Notes: generated from the letters alone by a model not told the origin. Positions 19,990 to 37,944 are shown, counted from the stretch's first letter. The stretch: 64,000 nucleotides of DNA from an uncultured Methanosarcinales archaeon (GCA_964510085.1 CAZEAB010000002.1:35567-99566), one strand, 5' to 3'. Program-made: numbers and translations.

Positions 19990-20108
19990 GCCCCTGTGGT
20001 GTAGTCCGGACAAATTCAAACACTGGATTCACAGGGTTTGTCTTTTGGGATAAACTATCATTCTGCCCTTTCGAGGCAGCGACCCGGGTTCAAATCCCGG
20101 CGGGGGCG
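19990..20108 (+). tRNA. tRNA-Glu (anticodon TTC) with a ~44 nt non-canonical intron in the D-arm (after ~position 21)
   Basis: Hand-folded. The acceptor stem is GCCCCTG/CGGGGGC. The D-arm GTGT-AGTCCGGACAA…TCAT matches the archaeal Glu type only after removing 44 nt. The anticodon arm is CTGCC-CTTTCGA-GGCAG and the T-arm is CCGGG-TTCAAAT-CCCGG. Confidence 0.6.
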
Positions 20109-20154
20109 CTTTTCTTTCCACAACTATTATATACATTAATACATTCTAACAAGC

Positions 20155-34746: not shown

Positions 34747-36309
34747 ATGTCAAAAGAATCTAACAAATCAAAAGCATTTCATTGGACGGATGGAGCAGCA
34801 AGAAACATAATTGCAAAACGAGGAGACAAAAAGACTTACGTAGTAGAATCAGGTATCACTCCAAGCGGATTCATTCACCTTGGTAATTTCAGAGAAGCAG
34901 TTACACAAGACCTTGTACGTAAAGGACTAGAACGTGCAGGAAAAAAAGTCAAATTTTTGTATGTTTGGGATGATTATGACGTACTTAGAAAAGTACCAAA
35001 AAATCTTCCAAAACAAGATATGATTAAAGAAAACCTTGGAAGACCTGTTTTCAAAGTTCCAGACCCATTTGAATGCCACAAAAGTTATGCAGAACATTTT
35101 GAAAAAGTGTTTGAAGAAGAAATGAAACAAGTAGGAATTGAATGTACATTTATGTATAGTCATGAACACTATCTTAATTGTGAGTATGCGGATGAAATAA
35201 AAACAGCATTAGAAAACACAGAAAAAATTAAAAATATACTCAATGAATACAGACGAGAACCTCTTGCAAAAGAATGGTTACCAATATTTGTATTCTGTGA
35301 GAAATGTGATAAGGATAAAACCAAAATCACTTGGGAAAAGGGATATGAAGTAAACTATACTTGCGAATGTGGTCACAAGGATACAATTGATTTCAGAAAG
35401 AAAGGAATTGTAACATTACGATGGCGAGTAGACTGGCCAATGCGATGGCACCACAATAAAGTAGATTTTGAATCTGCTGGAAAAGATCATTTTGCATCTG
35501 GTGGTTCTGTAACTACCGGAAGAGAAATTCAAAAGCAAGTTTACAAAACAGAACCCCCTGTTGGATTCATGTACGAATGGATTGGAATTAAAGGAAAAGG
35601 TCAATTTGCATCATCTGCAGGAAATGTAATAACATTAACAGAAATGCTTAAAGTATACGAACCTGCATTAATTAGATATATCTTTGCTGGTACAAGACCT
35701 AACAGAGAATTTTCAATATCATTTGACACAGACGTACTTGCTATCTATGAAGAATTTGATAAAGTAGAAAGAATCTATTTTGGAGAAGATCATAAACACG
35801 CAGCTAAATTAAAAGCAGCATATGAATTAAGCATGAACACAATACCTAAATCACTTCCATATCAACCAAGTATCCGTCATCTATCAATGTTACTTCAGAT
35901 TTACAACTTTGATATGGACAAAGTAATAGGATATTTCTCAAAGGAACTTAAAAATAAATTTGATAAAGACCGTCTTAAAGCAAGAGCAGAATGTGCAGAG
36001 AATTGGGTAAAAGAACATGCACCAGAAGATTTTCGTTTTACTGTACAAGAAAAATCACAAGTAACACTTAGTAAAGAAGGGAAGGAAATTCTACATAAAG
36101 TTGCAGAGAAACTTCAAGAGAAAGATTGGACCGATAAAGAACTTCATGAAGAGATGTATATCCTTTGCACAAATGCAGAATTTCCGCCAGCAGATTTCTT
36201 TAAAACAGCATATCGTGTCTTAATAAACAAAGAGAAAGGCCCTAAACTAGCTTCTTTCATTCTAGAGATTGGAAAAGAAAGGGTTGCAGAACTTTTCAAG
36301 TCGGTGTAG
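34747..36309 (+). CDS. lysK: Lysyl-tRNA synthetase, class I
   Basis: It has the class I HIGH-like HLGN (GFIHLGNFREA) and a KMSKS-like region, with the archaeal LysK length and architecture. Confidence 0.9.
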   Translation: MSKESNKSKAFHWTDGAARNIIAKRGDKKTYVVESGITPSGFIHLGNFREAVTQDLVRKGLERAGKKVKFLYVWDDYDVLRKVPKNLPKQDMIKENLGRPVFKVPDPFECHKSYAEHFEKVFEEEMKQVGIECTFMYSHEHYLNCEYADEIKTALENTEKIKNILNEYRREPLAKEWLPIFVFCEKCDKDKTKITWEKGYEVNYTCECGHKDTIDFRKKGIVTLRWRVDWPMRWHHNKVDFESAGKDHFASGGSVTTGREIQKQVYKTEPPVGFMYEWIGIKGKGQFASSAGNVITLTEMLKVYEPALIRYIFAGTRPNREFSISFDTDVLAIYEEFDKVERIYFGEDHKHAAKLKAAYELSMNTIPKSLPYQPSIRHLSMLLQIYNFDMDKVIGYFSKELKNKFDKDRLKARAECAENWVKEHAPEDFRFTVQEKSQVTLSKEGKEILHKVAEKLQEKDWTDKELHEEMYILCTNAEFPPADFFKTAYRVLINKEKGPKLASFILEIGKERVAELFKSV

Positions 36310-36310
36310 A

Positions 36311-36940
36311 ATGAGCGAGTTAGAGCAATATGTAAATTATTTTAGAGCTGTTGATGTGCCACCAAGTAAAACCCATATTTGTAGAGTAACAGATAGAGGT
36401 GTTTATCTTCCATCAAACCCAGTTCATCTTCTACTTGGATTTATCTATCTCCTTAAGGAGGGTATTATCTCTCAAGATGATAGCTTATTAGATGCAGGGT
36501 CAGGTGATGGTCGAGTTGCAATATTGGGTTCATTGTTAGGAATGAGATCTACAGGAGTTGAGTATGATTCTAAATTAGTTGAATTAGCACGATATCATGC
36601 ACAGCAATTAGGAACAGACACAACATTTTTACAAGGAGATTTTACAGACAATGCAACATATCACCCTGGAAGTTTTAGAGACTTCTCACTTGTTTACAAT
36701 TTTATTAATAACGAAGATAAAGTAGCAGAAAAAATTGCTCAAGATTCAAGGGAAGGAACCAAATTTTTGTTATATGGGTGTGTTGATAACGAACAATTTC
36801 CTGGATTAGACTGTACTGGTGGTTTTAACCTTCACGATGATCTTGTTCCAACAAATCCAATAGCTCCCAGAATTGGTGCAATTCATATTTATCATAAACC
36901 ATTAGGTCAACGTGTTTGGGCTACTACTTCAAGATTATAG
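36311..36940 (+). CDS. Class I SAM-dependent methyltransferase
   Basis: Motif I (LLDAGSGDGRVAILG) is present. The ORF track start (36269) overlaps lysK. The Met at 36311 directly follows the lysK stop. Confidence 0.6.
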   Translation: MSELEQYVNYFRAVDVPPSKTHICRVTDRGVYLPSNPVHLLLGFIYLLKEGIISQDDSLLDAGSGDGRVAILGSLLGMRSTGVEYDSKLVELARYHAQQLGTDTTFLQGDFTDNATYHPGSFRDFSLVYNFINNEDKVAEKIAQDSREGTKFLLYGCVDNEQFPGLDCTGGFNLHDDLVPTNPIAPRIGAIHIYHKPLGQRVWATTSRL

Positions 36941-37012
36941 AAAGTGTGGACGGCAGACAAGTTAAAATCAAAGATTCACAAGCCTGCCTTACCTAATCTA
37001 AGAAATAAAATA

Positions 37013-37145
37013 TGTGGACGGCAGGGTTTGAACCTGCGTAGGCACTAAGCCACTGGGTCCTAAGCATAGCCAGGAAACTCAAGTGAGAATCCTTCCAGCC
37101 CGTTTATATGGCTCCCAGACGGAAGTGACCACTCCGGCACGTCCA
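37013..37145 (-). tRNA. tRNA-Leu (anticodon TAG) with a ~49 nt intron at a non-canonical site in the 5' side of the anticodon stem (30/31–31/32)
   Basis: Hand-folded. The acceptor stem is GTGGACG/CGTCCAC. The anticodon arm CTGGG-CTTAGGA-CCCAG forms only after removing 49 nt. The long variable arm (TGGCTTAGTGCCTAC) is of Leu type and the T-arm is GCAGG-TTCAAAC-CCTGC. Confidence 0.5.
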
Positions 37146-37287
37146 CGTGAAACATGGACTGACGGTTCCGAAAATCTAAGATTTTAGTTACCGGCACGTC
37201 CACGTAAAGAGAATAAAGCAGTGACCTCTTTAAAAACATTTCTACATTTTCATAAACTTTAAAAGAGGACCATACACAAACACCAAT

Positions 37288-37944
37288 ATGAAACTCGTAC
37301 CAATCATATTAATTGCAGTAACATTACTACTAACTGGCTGTCTTACAAACTCTACTGAAACAGGACCTTGTGCAGGACTATCAGATTCAGCGAAAGATGA
37401 ATGTTTCTTTGAAGAGCTATCATGTAGTAAAATTAAGAACGATAAATCACGAGATTCATGTGTTGCAGAACTAGCTAAAGCAAAAGATGATGTAACCGTC
37501 TGTGACTTAATTGTAGATTCCGCAACAAAAGACTTCTGTACTCAGACATTTGCAGTTAAAGAGGGTAATTTTGAAGTTTGTATGGGTATAAAAACCCCCT
37601 ACTGGCAGAATAACTGCTTCAATAGTATCGCAACAGACACAAATGATGACACATTATGTGCGTTTATTGTAAATGACAAACAACGTATAAGTTGCTATAA
37701 AGAAATTGCATTTAAAACAAATAACACAGATTTATGTGTATTTACTGAAGATCGTGATTTTTGTGTATACACCATTGCAAAAAATACAAAAGATTTCAAA
37801 TTATGTGATAAAATTGAAAGTAGTTTGAACCAAAATGCATGTAGATTAAAAGTAGCAAAAGAACGAAATGATAAGAGTTTATGTAAAGAGATTAAAATAG
37901 CCGATTTAGTTCAAATTTGTAACGAACATTTTGATTCAGCTTAA
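37288..37944 (+). CDS. Secreted/lipoprotein-like Cys-rich repeat protein
   Basis: It has a signal peptide with an LLTGC lipobox-like site. About 8 repeats each carry a conserved Cys pair (…D.C….C…). Confidence 0.5.
   Translation: MKLVPIILIAVTLLLTGCLTNSTETGPCAGLSDSAKDECFFEELSCSKIKNDKSRDSCVAELAKAKDDVTVCDLIVDSATKDFCTQTFAVKEGNFEVCMGIKTPYWQNNCFNSIATDTNDDTLCAFIVNDKQRISCYKEIAFKTNNTDLCVFTEDRDFCVYTIAKNTKDFKLCDKIESSLNQNACRLKVAKERNDKSLCKEIKIADLVQICNEHFDSA

Follow-up and report, generated by a model that had tools for sequence, protein, structure and literature searches.

In a window of 64,000 nucleotides, by which we mean the whole stretch of DNA that was analysed, a tRNA-Leu gene is accompanied on one side by a short direct copy of its own 5' end and on the other side by a short direct copy of its 3' end. 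How did these copies arise, and do they act together with the gene that they flank? A preliminary description had offered two answers, namely that the outer copies pair in the primary transcript to form a helix enclosing the whole tRNA, or that they are att-like scars of integrative elements that targeted this tRNA. Partial tRNA copies are known to border archaeal mobile elements, as in the 44-bp tRNA-Arg repeat of SSV1 and the 44-bp tRNA-Gln repeats of the PYG1 island, and in Caldiarchaeum a 5' fragment (tRNA-Thr-F) lies 1.8 kb upstream of tRNA-Thr (PMC3293823; PMC9897764).

A two-intron tRNA-Leu gene and the copies of its ends

The window has a G+C content of 34.5%, and its class I LysRS matches proteins of Woesearchaeota and Nanoarchaeota, the matching genome records being Woesearchaeota MAGs; the host of the tRNA-Leu gene is a tiny DPANN archaeon (Woesearchaeota). 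Neither ARAGORN with default settings nor Rfam at its gathering threshold called a tRNA at this locus. ARAGORN -i placed a tRNA-Leu(tag) at c[37013,37146] and assigned it one intron of 49 nt, and the Rfam tRNA model matched with 30.4 bits (E = 1.8e-4). A BHB scan found two introns, with cuts after pre-tRNA positions 20 and 41 for intron 1 and after positions 52 and 81, around a central helix GGCU/GGCU, for intron 2. In both BHB motifs the central helix measures 4 bp, the bulges 3 nt and the inner helix 4-6 bp; the outer helix is weak, so that they are of the relaxed type. In silico removal of the two introns gave an 84-nt tRNA, whose perfect D-arm is restored by the removal of intron 1 and which differs by 1 nt from the intronless ortholog in the related locus L013; ARAGORN identified the spliced sequence as an 84-nt tRNA-Leu(tag) with perfect acceptor, D, anticodon, variable and T arms. 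The locus thus has the cloverleaf and the BHB-removable introns of an archaeal class II tRNA-Leu. Comparison with orthologs shows that the one-intron model of ARAGORN -i, with its mispaired D-stem, is wrong; it is misled by CCGTCTGGG in intron 1, which is a pseudo-copy of the exon CGGGCTGGG further downstream. The practical lesson is that default tRNA finders overlook this gene and that an intron-aware finder models one intron wrongly.

The features of the locus, all on the minus strand, are as follows:

37229..37236, minus: putative TATA box of the tRNA, TTTTTAAA, a motif shared with tRNA-Arg and with tRNA-Leu of L012
37191..37205, minus: upstream (outer) 15-mer copy, exact match, 25 nt past the TATA box
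37134..37148, minus: genic 15-mer copy (leader AC plus tRNA positions 1-13), from the exact-match search
37013..37146, minus: tRNA-Leu(UAG), class II, A73, 134 nt including two introns (ARAGORN -i; Rfam tRNA)
37106..37126, minus: intron 1, 21 nt, in the D-loop (BHB scan; borders +/-1 nt owing to a run of A)
37066..37094, minus: intron 2, 29 nt, inserted between positions 31 (anticodon stem) and 32 (loop) (BHB scan)
37013..37024, minus: genic 12-mer copy (T-stem 3' strand, 3' acceptor strand and A73), from the exact-match search
37000..37012, minus: oligo-T run TATTTTATTTCTT, a likely terminator by its sequence, directly after the tRNA 3' end
36945..36956, minus: downstream (outer) 12-mer copy, 5 nt from the stop codon of a convergent methyltransferase gene

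Intron positions vary among close relatives. Intron 1 is missing from L003, L013 and L024, and a homologue of intron 2 is present in L012, L003, L005, L024 and L045; L003 and L005 carry their introns at 31/32 and 37/38, and L013 has none. The tRNA-Leu(CAA) of L031 has an intron of 43 nt in the D-loop, made up of 37 nt of novel sequence and a second CCGGAG copy. It lies between CCGGAG direct repeats, and its palindromic CCGG pairs with itself as a perfect BHB central helix; therefore, short exon repeats at intron borders can stem from BHB symmetry. A second disrupted gene in the window, tRNA-Arg(UCU) at 19990..20109 (plus strand), has a 37-nt intron and is likewise missed by the default tools.

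Both repeats proved to be exact. In the window, the 15-mer CCGGCACGTCCACGT matches solely at 37134..37148 and 37191..37205, so that the repeat itself stands while the coordinates first given for it (37133..37147 and 37190..37204) were 1 nt too low; at up to 2 mismatches there is no additional match, and 100 shuffles gave an expectation of 0. The 12-mer TGTGGACGGCAG matches solely at 36945..36956 and 37013..37024, as originally placed, with 0.05 matches expected from shuffles at up to 1 mismatch. Every copy lies in tRNA orientation. The upstream repeat measures 57 nt start to start with a spacer of 42 nt, and the downstream repeat 68 nt with a spacer of 56 nt. With mismatches allowed, both run into flank that is not tRNA: the upstream repeat extends to 18 nt at 94% identity (TTYAC plus tRNA positions 1-13, one mismatch) and the downstream repeat to 20 nt at 85% (three mismatches). 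The concern that such repeats could be generic simple sequence present at many loci can be set aside, as neither repeat has a further copy in the window. A chance origin has next to no probability, given the expectations of 0 and 0.05 matches and the recurrence of the arrangement at orthologous loci. A further exact 9-mer, AATCTAAGA (TCTTAGATT in tRNA orientation), occurs in both spacers at 37173..37181 and 36995..37003 and resembles the anticodon loop CTTAGGA; it could be due to chance or could be a trace of tRNA-derived filler.

The motif TTTTTAAAGAG stops 21-22 nt before G1 of tRNA-Arg, and its TATA core TTTTTAAA 24-25 nt before G1; the spacing of TTTTTAAAGAG before tRNA-Leu is the same in L012 and in several other loci. 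This fixed distance between TATA box and tRNA 5' end suggests a near-leaderless tRNA transcription, like that of Nanoarchaeum. In the window, and likewise in L003, L035 and L042, TTTTTAAAGAG stands at the standard spacing from the upstream copy and not from the gene. By comparison with tRNA-Arg and L012, the upstream copy occupies the usual position of a tRNA 5' end in this organism; this puts the upstream block between the promoter and the gene, so that it should be transcribed as a leader of ~59 nt. With regard to a possible internal promoter in the upstream spacer, all five upstream blocks that we compared (5/5) carry a degenerate T-rich motif, TTTnnGRA, ~20 nt before G1, which is mostly not TATA-like. 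In the window, an inverted repeat CCTCTTTAAAA / TTTAAAAGAGG at 37225..37268 resembles a divergent pair of TATA boxes, for the tRNA and for a leaderless-looking lipoprotein gene at 37288. At the other end of the gene, T-runs follow the genic 3' end in every related locus but one; the window has a weaker oligo-T run after the downstream outer copy as well, and L026 has no T-run between the tRNA and its downstream element.

Local hairpins and the proposed outer helix

A fold of 36930..37215 gave three separate domains, namely a leader hairpin, the tRNA and a trailer hairpin. The two flanking domains are:

37152..37205, minus: leader hairpin, in which the upstream copy pairs with its imperfect complement CCGTCAGTCCATGT (37165..37152)
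36945..36993, minus: trailer hairpin, in which GGTAAGGCAGGC and GTCTGCC of the outer copy form a 7-bp stem, with an inner hairpin GAATC/GATT

In the leader hairpin, ACGUGGAC..CCGG of the upstream copy pairs with CCGUCAGUCCAUGU, 3 nt before the genic copy, and an inner hairpin is formed by AAAATC (37185..37180) with GATTTT (37176..37171). Its minimum free energy is -21.9 kcal/mol (z = -4.17), and its architecture recurs in L042, L007, L035 and L003. The trailer hairpin has a minimum free energy of -17.6 kcal/mol (z = -2.86). The inverted pair ggcag...ctgcc that had been noticed in the downstream spacer takes part in such pairing, GGCAGGC at 36988..36982 with GTCTGCC at 36958..36952. Both blocks have the same layout, with the copy in the distal position, then a hairpin, then the complement beside the tRNA.

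A helix enclosing the tRNA would have the outer copies pair with each other in the primary transcript, in the manner of rRNA processing stems or permuted tRNAs, and GUGGACG of the upstream copy is indeed complementary to CGUCCAC of the downstream copy. This complementarity is there by construction, however, and both the MFE and the centroid folds pair each copy within its own spacer; moreover, the downstream copy is separated from the tRNA by an oligo-T run, and no BHB motif connects leader and trailer. In ~40 related tRNA-Leu loci, the occurrence of one block is independent of the other and the window alone has both, therefore a leader-trailer helix is not a conserved feature. With copies that pair locally and blocks that are independent in relatives, the enclosing helix was not borne out, and we regard it as very improbable.

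We also considered the blocks as parts of a split or intron-containing gene. An exhaustive scan found no BHB motif joining the outer to the genic copies, the leader to the trailer, or the halves. Taking the blocks as BHB introns, with the upstream copy as 5' exon and the downstream copy as 3' end, fared no better, as the scan returned the two real introns only. If the upstream copy were used as an exon and spliced at the palindromic CCGG, UA would replace A14 G15, including the conserved A14. A BHB-like cut at -1/+1 (score 13) was judged to be a chance motif because its partner cut falls within intron 1, with the loss of positions 1-37.

Turnover of the blocks and their neighbourhood in related loci

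Some 45 related tRNA-Leu loci were gathered by LysRS synteny and by a T-arm pattern in metagenome and genome contigs. Comparison of the locus across relatives had been recommended at the outset as a check on the repeats, and it revealed a presence/absence polymorphism with borders at the repeats. In the closest relative, L012, whose LysRS is 93% identical and whose flanks are 83-89% identical, the promoter lies directly before the tRNA and exactly the 57 nt of the upstream block are absent. Homologous upstream blocks are found in L003, L007/L036, L035 and L042 (the last at tRNA-Leu(CAA)), all with the same topology, different inner hairpins and a common GAACCGTCAC-like arm. Downstream blocks are present in L012, L005, L015/L020, L018/19/47, L037, L023, L026 and L046, with a weak one in L043. 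An exact copy of the 3'-end 7-mer lies within 200 nt downstream in 12 of the 39 loci, against an expectation of 0.012 per locus.

Two pairs of loci delimit the downstream insertions. L046 differs from L013 (flanks ~90% identical) by ~80 extra nt bounded by a perfect 41-nt repeat, which takes in 12 nt of trailer, and its filler contains a perfect 10-bp palindrome; L026 has ~69 extra nt relative to L021, and the shared host flank resumes past the outer copy. Across loci the repeat length ranges from 7 to 41 nt and bases of the leader or trailer are often included, those repeats that reach leader or trailer measuring 18-41 nt in L023, L037, L020 and L046. L015 carries a tandem array of two units. 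Longer inserts occur too: a 3'-end copy lies 246 nt downstream in L014, and in L016/L044 a 21-nt copy lies 458 nt downstream with a 77-aa ORF between, which (examined in L016) had no PHROG or Pfam match. Without exception, the acceptor variant of a gene recurs in its outer copy, CCGTTCACA (T) in L012 and CCGTCCGCA (G) in L026 and L014, which fits a duplication of local sequence. Filler motifs are TAAGGCAGG...TATCTGCC and GAACCGTCAC. The motifs of both blocks were not found away from tRNA-Leu in 425 kb comprising the window and the loci, and no self-copies lie beside two other tRNAs (Arg and Lys). As a separate observation, L026 and L021/L032 are ~85% identical in the downstream flank and differ in the upstream flank, with Leu(CAA) in L026 and Leu(UAG) in L021, a pattern which suggests that paralogous tRNA-Leu genes may have recombined at their shared 3' ends.

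Some features of the blocks point to constraint. Of the 8 aligned downstream elements, 7 have the same ends, AAGGCAGG and TCTGCCGTCCRCA, and the L012 element differs at both. The distance from the genic 3' 12-mer to the downstream copy is 64-68 nt, start to start, in seven lineages. By locus, this distance is 64 nt in L005, L018/19/47, L023 and L037, 65 in L026, 66 in L012 and 68 in the window, and it is near-constant despite differing linker and hairpin lengths. The 7-bp outer stem contains a compensatory U-A/C-G pair that splits the elements into two subtypes, and the inner stem covaries, with 92.6% of cells paired against 84.8% in shuffles, and with a covariation score that 1 of 500 shuffles reached and that was far lower in slid controls, on the basis of 8 related sequences. 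A double change from A-U to G-C separates the syntenic loci L020 and L047, and L037 and L047 share a near-identical element although their flanks are otherwise unalignable. Six of the eight downstream elements folded have z values from -2.9 to -5.4; those of L012 and L005 are structurally degenerate (z = +0.9 and -1.55). On the upstream side, the five blocks have a common architecture and the motif GAACCGTCAC, with different inner hairpins, and four of the five leader hairpins reach z <= -3.15 with one topology. The downstream element is more conserved than expected of a neutral scar. Taken together, the conserved ends, near-constant spacing, covariation, sharing between L037 and L047 and common upstream architecture suggest either selection or sequence-specific mobility. 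A search of 36850..37300 against Rfam with E up to 10 matched the tRNA model alone, the other matches being noise.

The surroundings of the gene vary among relatives. The slot between the 3' end of tRNA-Leu and the 3' end of the LysRS gene, which corresponds to 36269..36940 in the window, is empty in some relatives and holds variable genes in others, with contents that vary in L003, L005, L012, L016, L017, L037 and L155; these genes include a methyltransferase, TrmB, AlaX-like, DUF7523, GT25 and HATPase-like genes, toxin-antitoxin pairs and LAGLIDADG endonucleases. Compared with L012, the window has ~65% identity on the methyltransferase side and 83-89% on the lipoprotein side. Sequence comparison thus suggests that the slot is replaced by recombination anchored in the tRNA and the LysRS gene. 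In L013, L046 and L051, tRNA-Leu lies between LysRS and the lipoprotein gene in the orientation opposite to that of the window (34747..37944), which implies that the tRNA gene was inverted locally.

Endonuclease genes abut the tRNA in several relatives. In L018/19/47, L045 and L153/154, a LAGLIDADG ORF of 229-233 aa immediately precedes tRNA-Leu and runs on into it, so that its C-terminus VDVPEWSNG is encoded by tRNA positions 1-26, and it carries the TATA box of the tRNA within its coding sequence. The cassette is present in L045 and not in its close relative L024. LAGLIDADG ORFs are also found downstream of tRNA-Leu or in the slot in L031, L039 and L150. In L007, the upstream copy makes up the last codons of a homing-endonuclease remnant ORF, and in L007 and L009 C-terminal remnants of the endonuclease act as promoter and leader. 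The window has no endonuclease gene, and the end of its spacer (ATGTTTCAC) is closer to the leader of the endonuclease alleles than to the native leader. The LAGLIDADG cassettes share a common upstream motif, CCACTGG..ACAACCAC..GAGTTTATATA. The tRNA-Leu gene is a hot spot for recombination and mobile DNA in Woesearchaeota.

Origin of the blocks

The analysis shows that the repeats are exact, that gain and loss occur precisely at the repeats among close relatives, and that the blocks are independent of each other and self-folding. We favour, with a probability of roughly 0.55, the reading that the repeats delimit two partial duplications with filler, independent of each other, at a hot spot of recombination and mobile DNA. 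In this model, two short insertion blocks would have been added, one at each end of the two-intron tRNA-Leu(UAG), each consisting of filler DNA and a duplicated gene end, with the repeats as their outer borders. The filler holds an inverted, imperfect copy of the adjacent tRNA segment, giving a direct-inverted-direct layout, and owing to this inverted copy each block folds into its own hairpin. The blocks may have been produced by illegitimate recombination or template-switch repair at the tRNA gene, and endonuclease activity may be linked to the duplications; a donor sequence for the filler was searched for and none was found. Given the spacing of the TATA box, transcription would start at the upstream copy and yield the leader of ~59 nt. 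In this leader the upstream copy could sequester the complementary arm and thereby keep it from invading the acceptor/D region of the tRNA, and 5' processing would then remove the leader. The downstream block, located behind the oligo-T run, would probably be made in read-through transcripts only. If the structure is dispensable, degenerate elements such as those of L012 and L005 are to be expected. Three other sources of the blocks were rejected. A tandem duplication of promoter and 5' end has no support as a recent event, since the spacer is only faintly like the promoter and L012 is without the block. A target-site duplication by a transposon or casposon does not agree with spacer ends that are not mutual inverted repeats or with a repeat length of 7-41 nt, and a dispersed repeat or MITE family does not agree with block motifs that, in the 425 kb of window and loci, occur beside tRNA-Leu only.

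The suggestion that the copies are att-like scars held up in part. Presence and absence of the blocks precisely at the repeats, the larger inserts with the same borders and the variable gene content on the 3' side of the tRNA are all as expected if plasmids or viruses with an integrase had once inserted at the tRNA 5' and 3' ends, left attL/attR remnants and later been almost wholly deleted; direct repeats of the tRNA termini, 15 nt and 12 nt exact, do flank inserted DNA, and the 21-nt copy of L016/L044 even encloses an ORF. A classical integrase scar, however, agrees poorly with the rest of the evidence. The spacers of 42 and 56 nt contain no ORF, and no integrase or recombinase, nor any integrase domain among neighbouring genes, was found near any of the ~45 loci. 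The repeats measure 12-15 nt against ~44 bp in known cases, and their identity is not confined to tRNA sequence, as they run into the host-specific leader and trailer. The leftover insert is uniform in size and architecture across many lineages, unlike the products of random deletion, and within the filler the neighbouring tRNA segment is repeated in inverted form. In viral contigs, the tRNA 3' 22-mer had 0 matches, so that no attP was detected there, and the 98 matches of a loose element pattern are attributable to chance, none reaching CCRCA. We therefore find the classical att origin doubtful. A somewhat better case can be made for blocks that are selected RNA or DNA elements mimicking the tRNA ends, which might help the pre-tRNA to fold or be processed, or might protect the gene, as decoys or through target-site immunity, from endonucleases and recombinases directed at the ends of tRNA-Leu genes. 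In the leader hairpin it is the 5' acceptor/D strand that is displayed, and the trailer has the form of a minihelix, (GUGG)-UAA-GGCAGG-hairpin-CUGCC-GUCCACA.

Selection of this kind would account for the conserved ends, the spacing of ~64 nt, the stable folds with a single leader topology in four of five cases, the compensatory pair of the outer stem together with the covariation of the inner stem, the A-U to G-C change between L020 and L047, and the sharing of an element by L037 and L047, and it would also fit the way in which the outer copy follows the acceptor variant of its own gene. In L026, where the T-run is lacking, tRNA and element would therefore be co-transcribed. Set against this, most tRNA-Leu loci have no blocks, L012 is without the upstream one, the downstream elements of L012 and L005 are degenerate, and at nearly every locus the downstream element comes after an oligo-T run; neither tRNA-Arg nor tRNA-Lys has flanking copies, no Rfam family matches, and the covariation is drawn from 8 related sequences. 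We consider selected elements a possibility that is less probable than the duplication reading. Its specific form, with the leader hairpin and trailer minihelix as conserved, selected mimics of the tRNA-Leu ends that act as decoys or immunity for an essential single-copy tRNA gene or as modules of a multi-intron pre-tRNA, is offered tentatively and is unlikely as it stands; in such a case, the trailer element might be released as a tRNA-like RNA of ~64 nt.

Partial duplication with filler, as we prefer to read the blocks, can be placed beside several known systems. With archaeal integration borders they share a direct repeat of a tRNA terminus beside an intact gene, polymorphism among close relatives and an association with rearranged tRNA genes and with introns gained or lost (PMC3293823; PMC9897764). 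In contrast to those borders, the repeats here are of 12-15 nt instead of ~44 bp, lie 42-56 nt from the gene instead of 1.8-23 kb, enter the non-tRNA flank and are accompanied by no integrase; the filler includes an inverted tRNA-end copy and a conserved hairpin, and both ends of the gene are affected. The gene itself resembles other disrupted archaeal tRNA genes in its two non-canonical introns, relaxed BHB motifs and intron positions that vary among close relatives, but the flanking blocks are not introns and no split or permuted halves are evident. Free-standing homing endonuclease genes are found beside tRNA genes elsewhere, as with segB in the tRNA cluster of phage T4; the LAGLIDADG gene directly at tRNA-Leu, present or absent among close relatives, is comparable, whereas the window is without an endonuclease gene. 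Template-switch (quasipalindrome) duplication is a general mutational mechanism, and the direct-inverted-direct layout, the variable repeat length and the perfect palindrome in the young filler of L046 are all in keeping with it, although motifs recur in the fillers of different lineages and no local template can be recognised for most of the filler.

Partial tRNA copies are usually taken as the footprints of large integrated elements, whereas those described here are miniature and hairpin-structured. A single gene has them on either side, and they are gained and lost between close relatives, within a DPANN lineage with heavily disrupted tRNA genes. Within a few hundred bases, the locus combines intron gain and loss, homing-endonuclease cassettes joined to the tRNA 5' end, a turnover of cargo genes, a local inversion and duplicated ends. 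It thus offers a useful natural setting in which to study the disruption of tRNA genes and their survival under attack by mobile DNA.
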